From the IMG/VR virus record IMGVR_UViG_3300046318_000318: a stretch of 64,000 nt of DNA; one strand, given 5' to 3'. This DNA comes from a virus (Duplodnaviria; Caudoviricetes). This document shows positions 6,086 through 61,803 of this stretch, one piece after another. The translations under genes and the position numbers were made by a program. The first letter of the stretch is position 1; each line of letters begins with the position of its first letter. The notes below the pieces were generated by a model. It did not search any database and was not told where the DNA came from. It worked only from the letters and a program-made list of their open reading frames with translations.

Positions 6086-9000
6086 TTATTCTTCCACGTA
6101 CTTGGTTTTAAATCCGGTACAGGTGAACATGTGGTTGATGATCTGTATGGGTTTCGTGTTACCGTAAGTAACCAGATTCCTATCCACGATCTCTTTGATA
6201 TCAGAAGGTTTCTCAGCATCCAAGATGTTCCTTGCCATATGGCGCTGAACAAGAGGGTTACCAGATCTATCCAACATCTCAGCCACAGCTTCCCGACCAC
6301 AATACCCCACAAACAAACGACCCTCAGTCTCACCGATGGTCCTGACCGGTGTGTTGCGATAAGGTCTTGCATGCTTTTCACGACGGTTGACCTGAGCCAA
6401 CAATCCATGCAACTGAAGGTTGCCTGTGCTCACAGCTGTCCAGTCGTCAGCGATCTTTTCCAACAGCATCATGTACAGAGGAGCGATCCTTACATTTCTT
6501 TCCGTAGTCACCATTTCACCAGAATTACCACGATAGGTTACCTTACCGTAGACTGGTTTGTAAGGAGACGCCTCTATCCTTTTGACGATCTCTTTGGATG
6601 AGAGCTGTTTGTCAATAGGCACATAGGCATACGCATGGTTAGAGATGATACTGACCATGTGCTCAGCCTGACTCTCTGGTGTTACCATACTTGCGTAGTA
6701 CATGGCTTGTTTGTCTGAGAACAACTTATAGAAGTCCACGACATACTGATGCACGGCTTGTATCTTTTGGATATCGTGCTTAGCCAGTAACTGTTCTGCT
6801 GTCACAGCTGTGGGTGTCAATCGCTCATATCCAAATTGTTGTCTGACGTGCTGGGTGATGTCCCTCAGCGTAGCACTCATGTGCTGTTCATACAACCTAC
6901 CTAAGTTCATGCGGGAGATAGTAGATGCTGCGTCCATCACCACATCCGCACGATTGCCATTTTCGTCCACTGGCATGTTCTCAGGTTCCTCAGTTTTTAC
7001 AACTACGCCTTTCTTATTGTCCAGTAAAGTCGCTCAGCTTCACAGCTTACTCTCTTTACCCGGTGTGCTAAGACACCCGCCTGTACTTTCATACAGGAAC
7101 AGACTATATCTTCATCCTTCCTTTCGGTTAGGATGTCTCCCATTTCGAATCTTGCTAAGATCCTACGCCTTACGGCTAGTCGTTGGCCACACCCCATGTA
7201 AGTATATATGTACATACTTAGTTAGGAGCTTCGGTGCGGATTGCCCATATATCTTTATTAGTTTTACCTTACCTGTGTGATTAGCACAGCCGTTAACTCA
7301 TTTTCATGGTTAAGTTGGTCAATAAAGTTTTGGGGGTTCCCCGGCAATTAGAGAGATTTTTTGTATTTACATTACTGTAAATAGGTGGCAGGATTTTATA
7401 TTTCATTGGTAGTTACCAGACTTATTTCGATGTGTCGATCTAGCTAAGTCTAAAGATATTCTCTGGCCAGGTGGTAAATCCAGTCAGATATCTTAAAATG
7501 TAGTTCTCATATGGGATTTCATGATTATCATCCAAAAGCTCTATGACTTTATTTTGGTCTAGCTTAGTTTGATTTATAAAATCTTGAAAATTCCATACGG
7601 TTTGTTTACGCTCAGTGACATTGTAAACAATTATATCGAAAGTGTTGAACAACGTTTCCTTAAAACCTAAACCGCGAAGTAGTCTTGTTTTAAACTTCTC
7701 ACGGTCTATATTTAGTTGTCTTATCCACTCTTCAATAGGTTGTATTATATCACCGTACTTGACGTTTTGATGGTAGTATCTTACATTCACCATTTGCTCT
7801 CTTGGATTACTCCATTTACAATTAGCTTTGTAATAACCCTTATCGCCGTCTATTCTGTCGAGCGTTGTGTTGTCCGGTCTTGGACCCATATCGTCGTAAA
7901 AGTGCTTGAATGACTTAAGCCAGCTTTCACATATGGTGATCCCGCGTTCACCGTAAAGATGGTATTTTATGTTATTTTTATTAGTGCAACGCTGGATCAT
8001 ATTCTCCCAAGTAGAATATTCCCTGCTTTGCCATAAACCATGCTTTGTTTTATTAGCCTGACGGTAACACCCACAACTTTTATTTGTAGGTCTTTTCAAT
8101 AGAGGTAGACATATATTTTTAATTACGCCGCAATCACACTGGCATTTAAAAATACGCCCGCTCTTACCCATCGGAGCTTCTTCGAGAACTGTTAACATAT
8201 TGAAACGTTGTCCAATATCAATCTTGCTTCTGCTCATTTCATACTCACCTCTTTCTTTTAAATGATTTCAAATCGACACATCTGAAATCTAGGTTGTTGT
8301 TCTACCAATGAACTATAAATTTTTATTTACCACCATGATTATCGGTTAACTTAAACCCTTCGCATGGCTCTATGGTGTACTCAATCACAAACTGGATTTG
8401 ATATTCGTCAACAGATGTTTTCCGTGATTGGAGTTGCAGTGGTTGTTTAAAGCTACTGCTGTTGTGATTGGTTTGCACCATGGCTTCACAGACAAGCTTG
8501 TCAAACTTAGGTGTAGTCAAGATCTCATTTGTGCCAAACTTTGTTCTGTTGTCCTTGCGAAGAGAAATTTCCAGATCGATCACTTTCTTGTAAAAAGATT
8601 GATTGGCCTCATGGTACCTGTTTAGGTAGTGAGACATCTCCACCGGCATATTCTTAACAGGTGCGTTATTGCGAATGACTTTGACATCCACCACCACTCC
8701 ACCCCCACCTCGTACGTAGACAGCTTCGTCAAACATGTGGTCGACTTCCATCAGATCGATACGGGACATCTCTACAGGCGAAAGAGATGTGTTGAAATCT
8801 CTGAACGCCATGAGAATACCATCTTCACGGATCTTGTCACCAATCTCTGGGAAAGGTTTGACCTCGTTGATGGTACCGTAAAGGTTGAGCGGGAATTGTT
8901 TACTACCGAAGTTGACCACTCGGGTGTCATAGATCTTGAACTTAAGCTTAGGCAGAAAGTCCTTAGAGACCATAATACCGTCCTCAGCCACAGACGGAAT

Positions 9001-19285: not shown

Positions 19286-22200
19286 TAACTCTCCAACCAA
19301 GATGAGATTGTTGCAATATTAGGCTTTGGGATACTTACGTTACCTGAAACCTGGAACGGCTTAGTCATCTGAAATATGTTAAACTCTGGTGAGAGAGGAT
19401 ACCACATATTAGACATCTTTTCGTCAAGTGAGATAGAGACATTGAGAGCGTCCATAACTACCTCACTCTAGCTTTAACTAAGTTCGCTAAACTTATTGAT
19501 CTTGCTTAAGGATCCTGATACTTTCATATCAGATTAGACTATATCTTCATCTTTCGATGCTCTTCGTTTCCACTCGCTTGAGTGTACTCCCATGTGGGAT
19601 AGTCGTTGACCACACTCCATGTAAGTATATATGTCTATACTTAGTTAGGAGCTTCGGTGCGGATTGCCCAATCCTTGTATCTTTTACCATACCCAGATAG
19701 TTACTCTGGCCACTGCATATATTTCTATCGCAGTTTGGTGCACAAGGCTCTAAGGAGTTTCCCGCAATTAGAAGAGTTTAAACGACGGCAACACTCTACC
19801 GTCAAAATCAGCATTTGGCTTATTGTCCAGTAAAGTCGCTCAGCTTCACAGCTTACCCTCTTTACCCGGTGCGCTTACACACCCACCTGTACTTTCATAC
19901 AGGAACAGATCATATCTTCATCCTTATTAAAGGATGCTCTCCGCTTCTTCCCTGCTTAGGGCTTTACTCGGTCGCAACTCCGATGATCGTTGAACTTTAC
20001 GCATGGTTGATAAGAATCAACTTTAGCGTCTTAGCTGCTGATTACCCAATTCTTATATTTTTCAAACTATCACGCTCATCGTTTCCGATCACGTTGTAGT
20101 ATATAAGACTCTAAAGGACTTCCCAGCAATTCAAAGAGATAACTTAGTCAATTACTCAACTAAGTGCCTTATCTCATCATTATTAAAATACAATGTCAAT
20201 CGCCACACACCGCCTATCAATGCTTTTCTTCTAGCTATTGTAGGGATATATTGTCTAGCATACCCAAATTGCTGACTAATATCTATAGGACTTGTTATAA
20301 TCCTAGTTTCGCCAGTTTCAACGTTTTCGATAAAATATCCGTTACCCCTAAAAGATCTTTTATCGAGACATAATTGTTTAAAGTACCTCAGCTCCTTATC
20401 GGTAAGATCTTTAAACTGTCCGTTGAAACTAAATTGCCAACCTTTAATCGGAATGTTCTTTAATCTTTTATTTTTAATAGATAGTTGAACACCCCATGAA
20501 ACACCAGTTATTTTCTCACAAGCTGCCAGCGATTCAAATTTACGTTCTTTGCGTGTGAATATATTTCTAGCAGTAACTGGTATTTTTATTTGTAAATCTT
20601 CTAAGGATGGTTTTTCCTGAGGCCATGGTCTTGCATCTAATTTTCGTTTGAAACATAATCCGTCTGAATAGATTTTAATATCGGAAGATCTAAGTCTGAC
20701 GGACACGGTTAGTTCAGAATATCCAAGTTTCAGAGAGCAATCCCTAGCACTTTTATATTCAGTCACCTCATCCGTGATTATGTTTTTAACAAGTATTGCT
20801 GAACCATACCTGAATTGATCGTACTCATTTTCTAAATTTTCATAATTTTTCCATTCTTTTAATTCAGATAGCCATTGAAACTGCATGTAATTTTCCCAAA
20901 GTTTACAACCGGGTTTTGTTTTTAACCGATGGTAAAGTAAATCATTACTCAAGCCTAATGCAATTGCGCATTGCGTCGGGTTATCATAAATAGTGATTTC
21001 ATTGGTTTTAACATTTCTAGTTATGACGTCTATGGTATACTTTTTCTCATTTTCAAGAATTCTATTTACTTTTTCATCAGATCTATCACAATTCGAATAA
21101 ATGACATTTCCTCTAGGTGTCACCCATTCTAAATTATCTAAGGTGTCAAAGCCAGGTATCTCATTTTTATGATTTACGTACAGCGATTCAACGTTTCTAG
21201 GATAATCTAGCCATGCTAAGCACATAGCTCTGTGTCTGAAAAATTTGTAAGATGTATTCTCATTAAGGGAAACATCAGGAATACCTGAATAGGAATGGTA
21301 ACCATCTCTATCACAAAAAGCTTTTTTATCCACACCAGTTATCAAATTTCTAACTTTTCCTTCCTTTGTTATACCATATCTTGTAAAACCAGGAATATAA
21401 GCATGATCTTTGTGTACTGGATGTGATAAACCAACTGGAAATTTCCAAATCAAGTTGCTAGGATGAGAGTTATTAAAATCACCGTCCTCGAACATCAAGT
21501 GTAATAAATGCACTTGACTTTCATGAACGTGAACGGGCTTAAAAGCCGAAGCTATGATAAACTCTATTGGATATAGACCAGGACCTCTTATCCAATCTAA
21601 GAAAATCAAAGTGCTTCCTGTTTCAGTTGAGATACACTCAATCTGAATGTTCTCTCGCGATATGACATCACCTTCTGAGTTAACAGAATAACGACCGTCA
21701 GACCAGGGTAGCGAAAGATAGTTTTGGGTTTGTAAATATTTACTAAGCATATATCCTTTCTATATAGAAAGGTATGCTAAACGGCGATTGACAATAATGA
21801 TAAGAATTAAGCGCGCACTGTTAAAATGTGCATTCCAATAGTGAGGTCATTTGGGTTCTTTTTGAACTTAGTAATCTTCACTCGTTGAGCCGACCCCTGC
21901 AAAAGGCTCGGATTTCTTTGGAGACATACATACAAACCTTTATCAGGCGCTTCGTCTATCAGCTCCTGCATAAACCTTTCTAACAAGGGGTGGTGTTTGT
22001 TAGTATGTTTGTATAGGAAACCAATAGAGTCATTCAGACCCATGCCGTAACGCCGCAGCTTATTCAACATGTGGATACGGTAAGCTGTGGTGGCCATACA
22101 CCAAGGAGCTTCTATTTCATCATACTCTTTACCCGCTGTAATAGAGATGATAACTGCTCGGAATGAGAAGTTGGTTCTGGCTCCGAACATGTGTTTCCTG

Positions 22201-48164: not shown

Positions 48165-48359
48165 TTATATTTCTGTTGATTTAACAATGATAGATAAGCC
48201 ATCTGGATGATAGCTGGAAGTGCTCTTACAAGCCATGTTGATAGATTCTTCTATAGATTCAAACAGAGGATGATTCTGTCTAAATCTAAGCTGTACGTGT
48301 TTCTCTTTACCTTCGTCATTGACGATAGTTGTATTAAAGACTATTTCGTTACCGATCAT
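48165..48359 (-). CDS. hypothetical protein
   Basis: 64-aa ORF with a 4-nt overlap. Confidence 0.65.
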   Translation of the reverse strand: MIGNEIVFNTTIVNDEGKEKHVQLRFRQNHPLFESIEESINMACKSTSSYHPDGLSIIVKSTEI

Positions 48360-48580
48360 GATTTATCAAACCTCTTTTTTATCTCTCTAAAAACTACCAT
48401 CGATAACACCAGAGCTGAAAATATATTCAGTAAAGGAGCTAAAGACACCACTATCAAAATACCACCTGTGGTAGCACTGAAGTCTACACCTCTCTCATCA
48501 TAAAAAAGATAAGCGCAGATAGCTGTTAGAACAAAACCAAAGATTACAAAAGTCAGATGTGTAGTTATAAGAAATTCCAT
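48356..48580 (-). CDS. small two-TM membrane protein
   Basis: probable start MEFLIT; hydrophobic. Confidence 0.65.
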   Translation of the reverse strand: MEFLITTHLTFVIFGFVLTAICAYLFYDERGVDFSATTGGILIVVSLAPLLNIFSALVLSMVVFREIKKRFDKS

Positions 48581-48744
48581 TTTAATACCGTTGTTGTAGT
48601 TACAGTCAAATAATTTCGGGTAAAAAAATAAGGGCGGGACAGTTTGTATCTGCTTGTGACAACCGAGTCTGGGTAGACTGATCACTTGCATCAACAAACT
48701 GTCCCTAATTAAGAACAAAGCCAACATGAATCGAACATGTTAAG

Positions 48745-49978
48745 TAAATATAACCTTCTACGCAGAATAGCACTGCTCCAGTTAATTTACTTGCCTCTAC
48801 CAGACGGCTTTGTTTCTCTATTTATTACAAGATAGAGAAGGATGTGTCAGTCACCGCATCCAAGATATTTATAACACCGACTCGTGTTACCGGTTTGTCC
48901 AAACCTGGTGAAAGGATAAGCTACATCTGTTTAACTCAATCGCCACATACCCAGTAGTTCAGGTAAGGGTTAAGATGATTGTGCTATAATAAGCACAGAG
49001 CCTTAATACGACAGTGTTTTAATTCATCAACATAACACTGAAGATACCCGAGTTCTCAATAGAGAATCTCGCTGTATTTTTGATGCCTAAGCACTCTAAA
49101 GCTATCTCTCCTAAAATAAGAGATAGCTTATAGGCTGCTCTCTGGGGTGATCAATCCCAAAGTTTACAACTTCCCAAAGATATCATTCATACAGTTCCCG
49201 ACCAAGGGTAGTCTATATAAGAGATATCCATAGGGCGTACGATTTGGCGGTTGGTTAGACCACCTTCTACTCCTTAACAAAAAGTTAAAGGCAGGCTATT
49301 ATCGTGAGCGCACCTCTTTCTATTACACACTTGTGATGTGTTTCGTCCTTGTGTTTAAAGCCTTAGGACTCATCAGATAGATAAGGCTCAAATGAAGTTT
49401 ATGTGGCCTCATTCTTTTATAAAGGGGTTTTCCCATAGCAGACTAAATGACTTCTGTCTATCTAATCTGCTACAGGCAAACACCTGAGTGCTAACTTGTT
49501 ATCATATCACAAAGGTAGATAACCACAACCTATTACAATAAAGACGTGTGAATCGCCTGCTTGCTTTGGCAAGAACAGCCCTCGAAGCTAGAGCCACATC
49601 AGGTCTGAACAATCGTCAGAACACATGATCCCAGGGGATTTAAAAAGCATCAAACACAGTTCTGGGAAACTATGTGCTAGATCGACAGTTTATATTTTCC
49701 TTGTTTTATCAACTAAGTGAAAATACCGATCACTTTATACTGCTCCATCGTGCGTGTATTTTGTTATCACGCTAACGTCCCGATAGTACGTTTACCTAAG
49801 TTACCAATGGTCAATACCTGCACCCTAGCCTTACGCCCGCAAGCGATCTATTAACTTAACTCCGTAATCCGCAATGATATACGCACATTAAGAAATGTTT
49901 ACACACTAGATTTACTAAGCAGCGACTTGTTAGTTACCATTGATACGATCAAGTCTACTCCGGTTTACTTAGGTTAAA
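48745..49978 (-). ncRNA. candidate large structured ncRNA B (about 1.2 kb)
   Basis: no ORF of 60 aa or more on either strand; many hairpins, a long-range closing helix and a 10-bp pseudoknot; starts right after a tRNA CCA. Confidence 0.62.
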
Positions 49979-50036
49979 TGGTACCAGGAACGGGACTCGA
50001 ACCCGTAAGACCCTTGCGGAAGTATTAAGTTTTTAA
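49979..50036 (-). pseudogene. 3' half of a split tRNA-Leu (anticodon loop to CCA)
   Basis: TTAAAA-ACTTA, long variable arm, ACGGG-TTCGAGT-CCCGT, TCCTGGT-A-CCA. Confidence 0.82.
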
Positions 50037-50046
50037 AGTACATGGG

Positions 50047-50355
50047 TGGCCCGCTCCGGAATCGAACCGGAACGCCCCTTACGAAAGCGTCAGATTTTAA
50101 GTCTGATCTCTACCACTGCAGTTTTCACTGCCACTTTAGTGTGTTTGTGGTCTGGACTATCCCTTCAACTACATCCTAAATGTTTAGCTGGGCGATTATA
50201 GTCTCTGCACGTCTTTCTATATTTCTATAGAAATTTCGCTCAGGATTGGCATCAGCAATTAACTGTTAAGCTTTCCCTGAATTTACGCCATTTTACTACA
50301 TTATTTCTAATGTAGGACACATCAAATATATGTCTACCTATTTCATCAGCGGGCC
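50047..50355 (-). tRNA. tRNA-Leu(UAA), interrupted at 25/26; exons 50355-50330 and 50107-50047; CCA not encoded
   Basis: spliced cloverleaf with acceptor GGCCCGC/GCGGGCC, anticodon arm UCAGA-CUUAAAA-UCUGA and a long variable arm. Confidence 0.9.
50108..50329 (-). mobile_element. group I intron, IC3-like (222 nt), at the D-stem/anticodon-stem junction
   Basis: P1 GACAU|/GUGUC with U.G; P10 UUGAU pairs with 3' exon AUCAG; GUAAAUUCAGGGAAAGC, GCCAAUCCUGAGCG, GCAGAGACUA, AAGGGAUAGUCC; omega-G at 50108. Confidence 0.92.
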
Positions 50356-50366
50356 ACCCATGTACT

Positions 50367-50867
50367 CTATTTCTTTTCTAATCTGTAGTATTCTTTCTTT
50401 ATTTCAGTTCTTTCGATGATCACGCCGCCATTTTGAACTTTGGCGCCATAAGAACCTGAACATTTTTTACTACAAAAAGGACCTGCTCTATTAGAAACAT
50501 AATTAGTTATCTGATTTTTACTAGGGGTAAATATTTCCTCACACCCAGCACACTTTACAGGATCCACCTTTACTCGTTTAGCGTCTTCACTTGCGTGAAC
50601 AGGCAGTGTTTTAACAATAAGGTTATTTAGAGAATTATTGGTGAAATTTCTATCGTGATGGTCAACAGTCTCACCGTCTTTTAACTTTTGTTTTAATTCA
50701 ATTTCTTTTAAAGCCTTGGGGTAAGAGATGGTTTTGGTCTTACCTTTAGTCCCCTTAGCAGCTTTTGAATTATTTAAAACAATATGCTGTCGACCATCAC
50801 TTCTGTGATAAGGACCTAAGACGGATGTATATTCTGGATATAATCCAAGAAGTATTTGCTTATCCAT
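50367..50867 (-). CDS. free-standing HNH endonuclease
   Basis: TVDHHDRNFTNNSLNNL HNH motif; C-terminal CAGC...FCSKKC Zn ribbon. Confidence 0.85.
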   Translation of the reverse strand: MDKQILLGLYPEYTSVLGPYHRSDGRQHIVLNNSKAAKGTKGKTKTISYPKALKEIELKQKLKDGETVDHHDRNFTNNSLNNLIVKTLPVHASEDAKRVKVDPVKCAGCEEIFTPSKNQITNYVSNRAGPFCSKKCSGSYGAKVQNGGVIIERTEIKKEYYRLEKK

Positions 50868-50871
50868 GTTT

Positions 50872-50898
50872 TCCCTTTACCGATTTGGGCATCCTGGT
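50872..50898 (-). pseudogene. 5' half of the split tRNA-Leu (acceptor and D-arm)
   Basis: ACCAGGA-TG-CCCAAATCGGTAAAGGG-A; ACCAGGA is the exact complement of TCCTGGT in the 3' half at 49983-49989. Confidence 0.8.
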
Positions 50899-50962: not shown

Positions 50963-51037
50963 TGGTGCCGGATGTCTGATTTGAACAGACGACCTATCGC
51001 TTACAAGGCGAGTGCTCTACCCCTGAGCTAATCCGGC
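50963..51037 (-). tRNA. tRNA-Thr(UGU), uninterrupted
   Basis: GCCGGAT...GCTCAGGGGTAGAGC...CTTGTAA...TTCAAAT...ATCCGGC-A-CCA. Confidence 0.93.
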
Positions 51038-60258: not shown

Positions 60259-61803
60259 TTACATGTTCAAAGCGTAACCGACACAATACAGATAAGGCGT
60301 GACTCCATCAAAGGACTCCACCATAAAGCTGAATGTATCGATTTTGTTGTTGATCAAAGTAAGAGCTGGAGCTGCACCATCAGGGAACTTCACGTTAGCT
60401 GGGAATACAAGATCACCACCTTTGTGAATAATAACCACTTTGTAGTCAAAACCTATCCGTGTGAGATCTAAGTTCTGAATATTGAAGTTGGTTACGTTAG
60501 AGATTAACTCTATACGGATAACCTGATGAGTATCTAAATCCCAAGAAACAGTACCCGAAGCTGGCTGTACTTTATTGGTAGTAGAGACTTTCTGTGGTTT
60601 GGTGAAGTTATTCTCTGCGGAAGGAGACATGTAGTCTGTACCAGCAGCAGCTAAAGTCAATATGTTGTTGGTAGTCTTTAACAGACCTGTTCCGGCAACG
60701 TTGATACCACCACCCACACCGCCACCTGTGCTTATTACACTGATGGCGTCTGATAAAGCCACCATATCGGTTATGATACCGTTACCAGTAATACCTGGGG
60801 TGATGCCGTTAACTATGTCTGATAAAGCAGTTAAGCTTGTGATGTCAGCTTTTAAAACATTTATACCATTGACTGTGTCAGTCAATGCATCTAAGGCAAC
60901 CTGACTGGCTTTACTCAGAGAAAGAGCATTTACCGTATCACTTAAGACATCAAGATCTACCTGCGTAGCTTTAAGCTGATTAATTTGATTAACCAAATCA
61001 CTCAATGCATCCAAATCTACTTGACTTGCTTTACCAGCTATCAATACAGAATGCGATTGAATAAGGGTAGTCAGTGCGGTGATTTCAGCATTTATAGCTG
61101 TAAGGTCTACAGTACCGCCACCGCCACCACCGCCCCCAGCTTGTAAGTTTGTTACTGCTGTTTGCAGATTGGTAATGATAGTAGACAAACCAGAAGTGTC
61201 AGCAATAGCGTGTCCATGACCAATAGCTGATTTACCTGCTAAACTGGTTTGGATAGAACCTAAACTATCATTCAGTCCCGATATGCTAGACATGTCATGA
61301 ACATGACTAACAGCTGCTTTACCAGCCAATGCTGGTGATAATCCAGCTATAGTAGTCATGTCGTGTACATGACCAGTTTCAGCTTTCATAGACAAAGTCT
61401 GTGCTAAGAGACTGATATCATCTATAGCGTGCGTATGGCCTAAAGCAGCCTTACCAGCCAACGACAGATCAAGACCACTTATCTCAGAGCTAACGTGCGT
61501 ATGTCCAAAATTAGACTTGCCAGCCAGAGCCGTCATCAAACCTGAGATATCATCTGTAGCTAGGGTATGTGTGTGATTTGCATCAGCTTTACTTAGCAAA
61601 GCAGTCAGCACAGCAGTTGATACTGGCTTATCGGCATCACTTGTGTTGCTGACATTACCCAGACCCACATCTTGTTTAGTGAGTATAGATTTAAAAGTAT
61701 TCAGAGTCATTCGGTAATTCTGATTACCAAATATCAAAGACACTTGTTCCAGACCTGTGGCTGTGGTTAACAGCGAAAAGTCACTTATCTTTCTATTAGC
61801 CAT
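60259..61803 (-). CDS. tail fibre protein with HxH repeats, coiled coil and a distinct C-terminal domain
   Basis: MANRKIS N-terminal module, six HxH repeats, poly-Gly hinge, heptad repeats. Confidence 0.75.
   Translation of the reverse strand: MANRKISDFSLLTTATGLEQVSLIFGNQNYRMTLNTFKSILTKQDVGLGNVSNTSDADKPVSTAVLTALLSKADANHTHTLATDDISGLMTALAGKSNFGHTHVSSEISGLDLSLAGKAALGHTHAIDDISLLAQTLSMKAETGHVHDMTTIAGLSPALAGKAAVSHVHDMSSISGLNDSLGSIQTSLAGKSAIGHGHAIADTSGLSTIITNLQTAVTNLQAGGGGGGGGTVDLTAINAEITALTTLIQSHSVLIAGKASQVDLDALSDLVNQINQLKATQVDLDVLSDTVNALSLSKASQVALDALTDTVNGINVLKADITSLTALSDIVNGITPGITGNGIITDMVALSDAISVISTGGGVGGGINVAGTGLLKTTNNILTLAAAGTDYMSPSAENNFTKPQKVSTTNKVQPASGTVSWDLDTHQVIRIELISNVTNFNIQNLDLTRIGFDYKVVIIHKGGDLVFPANVKFPDGAAPALTLINNKIDTFSFMVESFDGVTPYLYCVGYALNM

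Follow-up and report, generated by a model that had tools for sequence, protein, structure and literature searches.

A probable homing cassette in a freshwater phage: an HNH endonuclease gene and its own tRNA-Leu(UAA) inside a broken tRNA-Leu(UAA) gene

Why would a giant phage carry a complete leucine tRNA gene, together with a nuclease gene, inside the remains of another leucine tRNA gene? This question is raised by the minus strand of the IMG/VR virus record IMGVR_UViG_3300046318_000318 (Duplodnaviria; Caudoviricetes), of which a stretch of 64,000 nucleotides (nt), hereafter the window, was analysed. In it, an HNH endonuclease gene and an intron-bearing tRNA-Leu(UAA) gene (tRNA B) stand between the two halves of a second tRNA-Leu(UAA) gene (tRNA A). 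From sequence comparison we consider it probable that an I-HmuI-like HNH gene, with its own tRNA-Leu(UAA), was copied into the resident tRNA-Leu(UAA) at its anticodon arm, acting as a homing cassette that brings along a spare of the gene that it breaks.

The evidence that carries this answer comes from phages in which the resident gene is whole. A sequence-only reading of the locus had proposed that a mobile cassette, consisting of the HNH gene and its own tRNA-Leu, disrupts a resident tRNA-Leu, and had expected an intact tRNA A in relatives lacking the HNH gene; such relatives were found, supporting the proposal. The IMG/VR contig L001, located through a neighbouring DprA-like gene (97% identical), matches the window flanks on both sides with 89-94% identity (blastn). 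At the same genomic place it has no cassette but an unbroken tRNA-Leu(taa) of 89 nt, which shares its acceptor, D and T arms with tRNA A. The alignment stops at window 50871/50870 and restarts at 50012, and 858 nt (50870-50013) in the window stand in for 27 nt of L001 (L001:6244-6270), which make up the stem and loop of the anticodon arm together with the 5' side of the variable arm. The earlier view that only positions 27-32 are missing was therefore wrong, since the whole anticodon arm and half of the variable arm are gone. Furthermore, in one contig of the DNA run X22 the window positions 49982 and 50902 stand on either side of 94 letters of other sequence, in agreement with the intact allele, and another contig of the same run carries the HNH gene at 0 mismatches, so that cassette-plus and cassette-minus alleles occur in one sample. 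The HNH gene is accordingly polymorphic for presence and absence at this locus, being absent from L001 and the X22 contig, which together make up the cassette-free evidence (one relative and one contig), and present in the window and in six further independent contigs. The latter come from other samples and share an arrangement identical to that of the window, which is therefore not an assembly artefact.

In the window, the order read earlier from the letters (5' half of tRNA A, HNH open reading frame (ORF), intron-bearing tRNA-Leu B, 3' half of tRNA A with CCA) was confirmed, as was the perfect 7-bp match between the acceptor strands of the two tRNA A pieces. The features are as follows, with their basis in brackets; HMM stands for hidden Markov model, MFE for minimum free energy, and dN/dS for the ratio of nonsynonymous to synonymous substitution rates.

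50872..50898, minus strand: 5' fragment of the resident tRNA-Leu(UAA) A, 27 nt (sequence; aligns to L001:6216-6243)
50013..50870, minus strand: the cassette, an 858-nt window-specific segment (blastn against L001; X22 contig)
50367..50867, minus strand: putative HNH homing-endonuclease gene, 166 aa (phrog_14913; Pfam HNH_3; homologue alignment; AlphaFold2 model; dN/dS)
50356..50369, minus strand: leader strand of a 13-14-bp helix (complementarity and compensatory changes; MFE fold)
50330..50355, minus strand: 5' exon of tRNA-Leu(UAA) B, positions 1-25, with the end GACAU (sequence; canonical tRNA-Leu(taa) after joining)
50108..50329, minus strand: group I intron, 222 nt, ORF-less, between tRNA positions 25/26 (RF00028; RNAalifold; P1/P10 covariation)
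50047..50107, minus strand: 3' exon of tRNA-Leu(UAA) B, A26 to the discriminator base A73 (sequence; Rfam; splicing in silico)
50034..50047, minus strand: trailer strand of the leader-trailer helix, from A73 of tRNA B (complementarity; MFE fold)
50013..50033, minus strand: anticodon-loop-like and variable-arm-like remnant (outside the blastn alignment to L001; tRNA-Leu HMM)
49979..50012, minus strand: 3' fragment of the resident tRNA-Leu A (aligns to L001 from 6271; complementary to the 5' fragment)
50963..51037, minus strand: tRNA-Thr(UGU), intact upstream neighbour (ARAGORN; Rfam tRNA 68.9 bits; L001 comparison)

What, then, is left of tRNA A, a class II tRNA-Leu? Its 5' fragment holds positions 1-26, with the acceptor strand ACCAGGA, the D arm and A26, while the 3' fragment holds the 3' side of the variable arm, the T arm, the acceptor strand TCCTGGT, A73 and CCA, ending at 49979. 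The tRNA-Leu HMM aligned the remnant at 50013-50033 as positions ~29-47, with no match to the intact allele; since this stretch lies outside the L001 alignment, its anticodon-loop-like sequence belongs to the inserted segment, and the remnant probably came in with the cassette from a tRNA-Leu that had hosted it before. When the two halves of tRNA A were joined in all registers, ARAGORN returned poor models with mismatched anticodon stems, and a functional split tRNA was rejected, given these weak models and an anticodon arm that is missing relative to the intact allele. Split tRNA genes of the Nanoarchaeum type (PMC4390854) likewise consist of two separated pieces with complementary acceptor strands; in contrast, tRNA A lacks an anticodon arm and a bulge-helix-bulge junction, and is intact in a close relative. 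It is a broken gene, not a working split gene.

The chimeric variable arm, the 21 cassette-adjacent nt unlike the intact allele and one D-loop difference are candidate marks of co-conversion, which with a single cassette-free relative are indistinguishable from drift. No target-site duplication was seen at the cassette borders in the comparison with L001, and an exact search for the 5' piece of tRNA A in IMG/VR gave no match. The D-arm sequence AAAGGGA had been noted at Shine-Dalgarno distance from the HNH ATG; it does end 5 nt before that codon, but as a Shine-Dalgarno match within the D arm it is particular to the resident tRNA of the window and not conserved, as L011 and L092 have an AGGA of their own past the D loop and L014 lacks one. 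At its other end, the HNH gene stops 11 nt before tRNA B.

Two side observations belong here. One contig of the RNA run X16 skips 150 nt within the HNH ORF (window 50660-50811), corresponding to an in-frame loss of 50 codons, and may be a deletion variant or an assembly artefact. In L001, the upstream tRNA-Thr is interrupted (L001:5628-6115, against window 51020-50998), reading GCTCAGGG and then 488 nt; this insert holds a distant member of the window HNH family (HMM score 60.6), and the acceptor strand of the tRNA-Thr 3' remnant no longer matches the 5' piece.

Is the inserted gene a plausible homing endonuclease? Its product matches phrog_14913 (HNH endonuclease, E 8.6e-15) and, weakly, Pfam HNH_3 (E 4.5e-4, 20.2 bits, below the cut-off of 24.8), and at least 147 homologues were collected. 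Residues D69, H70, N82 and H91 of the HNH motif and four cysteines were invariant in 35 homologues, and the window ORF is intact, with all of these residues present. The AlphaFold2 model (predicted local distance difference test score, pLDDT, 94.8) has an N-terminal I-HmuI-like beta domain with the HNH motif and a C-terminal four-cysteine zinc ribbon (C106, C109, C132, C136), the latter part resembling small zinc ribbons. Its sole clear PDB match was I-HmuI (1U3E), with a Foldseek probability of 0.92, and VIA-align superposed model residues 2-97 on I-HmuI residues 2-106 (Z 6.9, root-mean-square deviation 3.3 A, 85 residues, 25% identity); a sequence-profile search of the PDB gave zinc-ribbon matches only. 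Moreover, pairwise dN/dS values within the window clade ranged from 0.08 to 0.26, with 0.18 for the least saturated pair (L008 and L010), and the sequences indicate that the family is under purifying selection. By motif, predicted fold and locus polymorphism the protein is classed as an HNH (beta-beta-alpha-metal) homing endonuclease, its cleavage and biased inheritance being putative.

I-HmuI is the intron-encoded nicking HNH endonuclease of Bacillus phage SPO1 (PDB 1U3E). Like the window protein, it combines an N-terminal beta-sheet DNA-binding part with an HNH motif, and some relatives of the window protein are also intron-encoded; unlike I-HmuI, the window protein has a four-cysteine zinc ribbon in place of helical and helix-turn-helix domains, and the target is a tRNA-Leu instead of a DNA polymerase gene, the match between the two being moderate.

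The second part of the cassette is tRNA B, whose intron core matched RF00028 with 59.7 bits (gathering score 50, E 4e-14; Rfam). In P1, the exon end GACAU pairs with intron GUGUC, leaving a U.G pair at the 5' splice site; in P10, the start of the 3' exon (AUCAGA) pairs with the six intron bases just before GUGUC (UUUGAU); and the terminal G of the intron is at 50108. Joining 50355-50330 to 50107-50044 gave a tRNA-Leu(taa) that ARAGORN models as canonical, its variable arm being long and its discriminator base A73; CCA is not encoded (genomic ACCC). The predicted intron site is therefore between U25 and A26, outside the anticodon loop. As had been read from the letters, the spare tRNA is interrupted in the same region as the broken resident, to within 1 nt, the resident 5' piece ending at 26/27. 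Described group I introns of bacterial tRNAs are inserted in the anticodon loop, which is not the case in the window and six other lineages. Because its intron lies elsewhere than in the anticodon loop, tRNA B escapes ARAGORN at default settings; when forced to anticodon-loop introns, the program proposed a tRNA-Val, which was rejected as spurious.

Comparison among phages bears on this splice-site assignment. L011 has the same exons as tRNA B and an intron 91% identical, and L092 has a different tRNA-Leu in which both helices changed in step with the exons (P1 GACGU/GCGUC, P10 AAGAG/UUCUU), as they did in L100 too. For the three introns of the window, L011 and L092, RNAalifold predicted 68 pairs; compensatory change was seen at 11 of these, P1 included. 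Four more 25/26 lineages (L095, L098, L099 and L100) came from scanning metagenomes for a conserved word of the intron core, and all seven lineages splice in silico between U25 and A26 to a canonical tRNA-Leu(taa). The intron core of the window is 69% identical to those of HNH-bearing introns at the 34/35 site. An intron in L014 is apparently at 31/32, but would put an A-U instead of a U.G pair at the splice site.

Around tRNA B, the 13-14 nt before the gene are complementary to the 13-14 nt starting at its discriminator base and extend the acceptor stem, the leader strand overlapping the HNH stop codon (50369-50367). This pairing is kept by different sequences, with compensatory changes, in the window, L011, L014, L092, L098, L099 and L100, and when the spliced pre-tRNA B was folded together with its flanks, the MFE structure (-59.0 kcal/mol) placed an unbroken helix of ~21 bp under the cloverleaf. 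Such a helix may be a processing site for an RNase III-type (double-strand-specific) enzyme, which would release pre-tRNA B from the HNH message. As a separate observation, the 25/26-intron tRNA-Leu with its leader-trailer helix stands behind a different HNH-type ORF in L095 and has no upstream nuclease gene in L099 and L100; because of these contexts, the intron-tRNA unit is not tied to the window nuclease family. RNA-library contigs span the HNH gene and the unspliced exon-intron junction. Deep short RNA contigs at 50056-50104 were also considered for tRNA B and were assigned to the tRNA-Leu of other organisms, with GGTAGACACAAG as a loose end.

How general is this arrangement? A single-protein locus search with the HNH protein found nothing, and an alignment-based scan yielded the 76 IMG/VR loci compared here. 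In ~59 of the 76, tRNA-Leu(UAA) genes or pieces were directly beside the HNH gene on the same strand (ARAGORN and tRNA-Leu HMM), and the 14 loci without any adjoining tRNA-Leu formed one clade. The layouts were of four kinds. In the first, the HNH ORF lies within a 34/35 tRNA-Leu intron (L027, L046, L048, L050, L054 and L075), and each of these six loci has a single junction (exon CUU, an intron ending in G, exon AAAA) that gives a tRNA-Leu in silico. The second is nested as in the window, with a 5' piece, the HNH gene, a complete tRNA-Leu and a 3' piece; the third has the same order without the 3' piece; and the fourth runs tRNA-Leu, HNH gene, 3' piece. The nested layout was found in all five lineages of the window clade (support 97/94), and recurs with HNH relatives in other phages. 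The spare tRNA of nested loci carries a 25/26 intron (window and L011), a 34/35 intron (L010), the apparent 31/32 intron (L014) or no intron (L008 and L094). Furthermore, in the window, L010, L008, L014 and L098 the acceptor strands of the flanking halves are specific to the lineage and complementary to each other.

Some other features of these loci were recorded. L098 is nested likewise, with halves GCCTGAG/CTCAGGC, a 25/26 intron and a leader-trailer helix, and its HNH gene is broken by a frameshift (pieces 244-684 and 629-814 of the oriented segment), making it a decaying copy. UAA tRNA genes of 74-78 nt with a short variable loop occur just after the HNH gene in L024, L025, L026, L028, L039, L053, L058, L063, L072 and L076; they have a class I shape, yet would read leucine codons. 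Bacterial-type RNase P RNA genes (247-304 bits) were found on phage contigs (L055:3602-3945, L036:4074-4403 and L064:3757-4124) ~0.6-1.1 kb downstream of HNH relatives, all from the clade without adjoining tRNA-Leu.

How would such a cassette spread? We infer its homing from the known behaviour of homing endonucleases (PMC3984707, PMC2330249). During co-infection, the nuclease would cut or nick cassette-free tRNA-Leu(UAA) alleles at positions ~26-35, and repair from a cassette-bearing genome would copy the cassette in, with homology supplied by the flanking tRNA pieces, whose D-arm and T-arm/variable-arm sequences are conserved. Repair through such short homologies would account for flanking acceptor halves that are those of each recipient. 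The spare tRNA would keep UUA/UUG decoding going and would probably remain uncut, its target region differing in sequence and being interrupted by the intron. That the intron in tRNA B, or its different anticodon stem, gives immunity is speculative, and the intron is not required, because the related cassettes L008, L090 and L094 carry intronless spare tRNAs. Intron-borne and spare-tRNA forms could interconvert by duplicating or losing a 5' exon of 25-35 nt. A wider proposal, which we put forward as tentative, is that one homing-endonuclease family has two interchangeable ways to harmless insertion, namely a self-splicing tRNA-Leu intron or a complete spare tRNA-Leu, with the spare protected here by a group I intron moved to 25/26; it would include the first phage tRNA introns and a selfish module of three parts (nuclease, spare gene and protective intron).

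Several points weigh against the cassette as we describe it. The cleavage target is placed solely from the borders of the flanking pieces (5' pieces end at ~22-33 and 3' pieces begin at ~32-34). The flanking halves are not complementary in L011 and L094, so that some of the tRNA pieces are debris or moved along with the cassette. On the HNH tree, which has no root, the layout classes are interleaved and need 20 changes, so that the tree does not fix the order of events. With a Z of 6.9, the match to I-HmuI falls short of the range in which structural similarity can be trusted by itself. The RNA-run contigs, which show presence and cannot prove transcription, contained no spliced tRNA B. Finally, no spare tRNA-Thr is visible at the insertion in L001, and a spare copy is therefore not obligatory.

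Could the locus have arisen in place instead? An HNH-bearing 34/35 group I intron in tRNA A, of the L027 and L048 type, might have been rearranged with duplicated exon pieces, the halves of tRNA A being the old exons. The composite 34/35 intron in tRNA-Leu indeed has the same HNH family and a homologous intron core (the 69% identity above), L018 and L051 resemble the 34/35 form with a duplicated 5' exon and no 3' half, and the 3' halves, with their start at ~32-34, lie next to the canonical intron site. However, L001 and the co-occurring strain of X22 have at the same place an uninterrupted tRNA A with a proper anticodon arm, whose precise restoration by deletion would be improbable, and tRNAs A and B differ in their acceptor, D and T arms. 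Such a rearrangement may explain the first origin of the cassette elsewhere, but not the window locus, for which we regard it as unlikely.

We also find it improbable that the cassette came by homing and is now an inert fossil, with the pieces of tRNA A as debris and an HNH gene that is decaying or kept for another reason. The frameshifted HNH gene of L098, in the same layout, and the orphan tRNA pieces at many loci are in agreement with such a history, and homing-endonuclease genes do cycle between invasion and decay (PMC3984707); in contrast, the window ORF has kept all of its invariant residues, the dN/dS of the family is well below 1, and both alleles in one sample imply that targets are still available. 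Lastly, the pieces of tRNA A might pair across 0.9 kb into a functional tRNA-like cap, an acceptor/T-arm/D-arm module for RNase P and 3' processing that defines or stabilises the HNH-tRNA B transcript, which is very improbable: although the halves cofold with the 7-bp acceptor stem and an intact T arm (-25.4 kcal/mol) and acceptor complementarity is kept in five lineages, complementarity is expected anyway with recent insertions and is absent in L011 and L094, L092, L019 and L081 have no 3' half, and no RNA ends are visible in the RNA-library contigs.

The probable homing cassette can now be set beside known systems. In phage T4, the free-standing endonuclease gene segB lies, as in the window, among phage tRNA genes, and SegB recognises a conserved tRNA-gene sequence (a T-arm motif) and spreads with neighbouring tRNA genes in co-infection (PMC2330249); in contrast to the window protein it is a GIY-YIG and not an HNH enzyme, and its gene stands between tRNA genes, not inside one; nested tRNA halves and an intron are absent there. 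Collaborative (trans) homing is known for F-CphI with the cyanophage psbA intron and for mobE with the nrdB intron of T4 (PMC3984707, PMC2790892), and, as in that arrangement, the endonuclease gene of the window stands free next to an intron of the target gene that has no ORF. Unlike those cases, the host gene here is a tRNA gene, the whole intron-bearing gene is cargo carried into a second gene copy, and related cassettes are intronless. The 34/35 intron of bacterial tRNA-Leu(UAA) is likewise a self-splicing group I intron type in a tRNA-Leu(UAA), and its exact site is used by the phage relatives L010, L018, L027 and L048; by contrast, the window intron separates the D stem from the anticodon stem (25/26), with the 3' strand of the D stem as the exon strand of P1, and its host is a phage. 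When integrating elements use tRNA genes as targets, they supply a substitute for the 3' end and leave the displaced remnant at the far end. Like them, the cassette would be mobile DNA that carries a copy of what it displaces, so that tRNA function is kept, but it has no integrase and no att sites, supplies a whole tRNA gene, and presumably moved by break repair between co-infecting phages.

In the window, which comes from freshwater metagenomes, a chimallin-type nuclear shell protein, a virion RNA polymerase beta subunit and a family B DNA polymerase are encoded, the DNA polymerase being at most 41% identical to those of known chimalliviruses (nucleus-forming jumbo phages). In a blastn search of GenBank phages, the locus matched in the tRNA-Thr alone, and there is accordingly no close cultured relative. 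Five group I introns were found in the window by Rfam, the four besides that of tRNA B being at 7080-7407, 19515-19807, 19886-20196 and 36974-37227. A stretch near the fourth of these (37294-37473 region) is 76-78% identical to parts of the tRNA B intron core, and a 532-aa ORF with HNH matches (20152-21750) adjoins two of the window introns. ARAGORN also called a 93-nt tRNA-Met at 61240-61332 on the minus strand, within a 514-aa tail-fibre-like ORF, which is without Rfam support and probably spurious.

Directly downstream of the locus, 48728-49978 (minus strand) is 1.25 kb without long ORFs that is 94% conserved in L001. Folding of its first 599 nt beat 100 of 100 shuffles (z -3.6). At 49700-49961 there are deep RNA-library contigs, and no Rfam match was found in 48300-50000. 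This stretch may be a large structured RNA.

Already established are endonucleases of the SegB type that stand free in phage tRNA clusters, collaborative homing, HNH nickases encoded in introns, and the tRNA-Leu intron at 34/35. Phage introns known by 2014 were all in protein-coding genes, according to a review of that year (PMC3984707). In our literature search, neither a cassette of nuclease and tRNA genes nested in a tRNA nor phage tRNA group I introns nor a group I intron at 25/26 turned up.

Homing-endonuclease genes are thought to survive in important genes by residing inside introns or inteins, or else between genes. The locus described here suggests a third route to survival, in which the element brings a spare copy of its target gene. 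It would also allow the free-standing, beside-intron and within-intron steps, which bear on collaborative homing as a route to mobile introns, to be compared in one family and on one target; this system is testable, because cassette-plus and cassette-minus alleles coexist in freshwater samples. Moreover, it adds group I introns in phage tRNA genes, at a 25/26 site with the D stem as splice-site helix, and widens where such introns may be looked for, since standard tRNA finders miss them.

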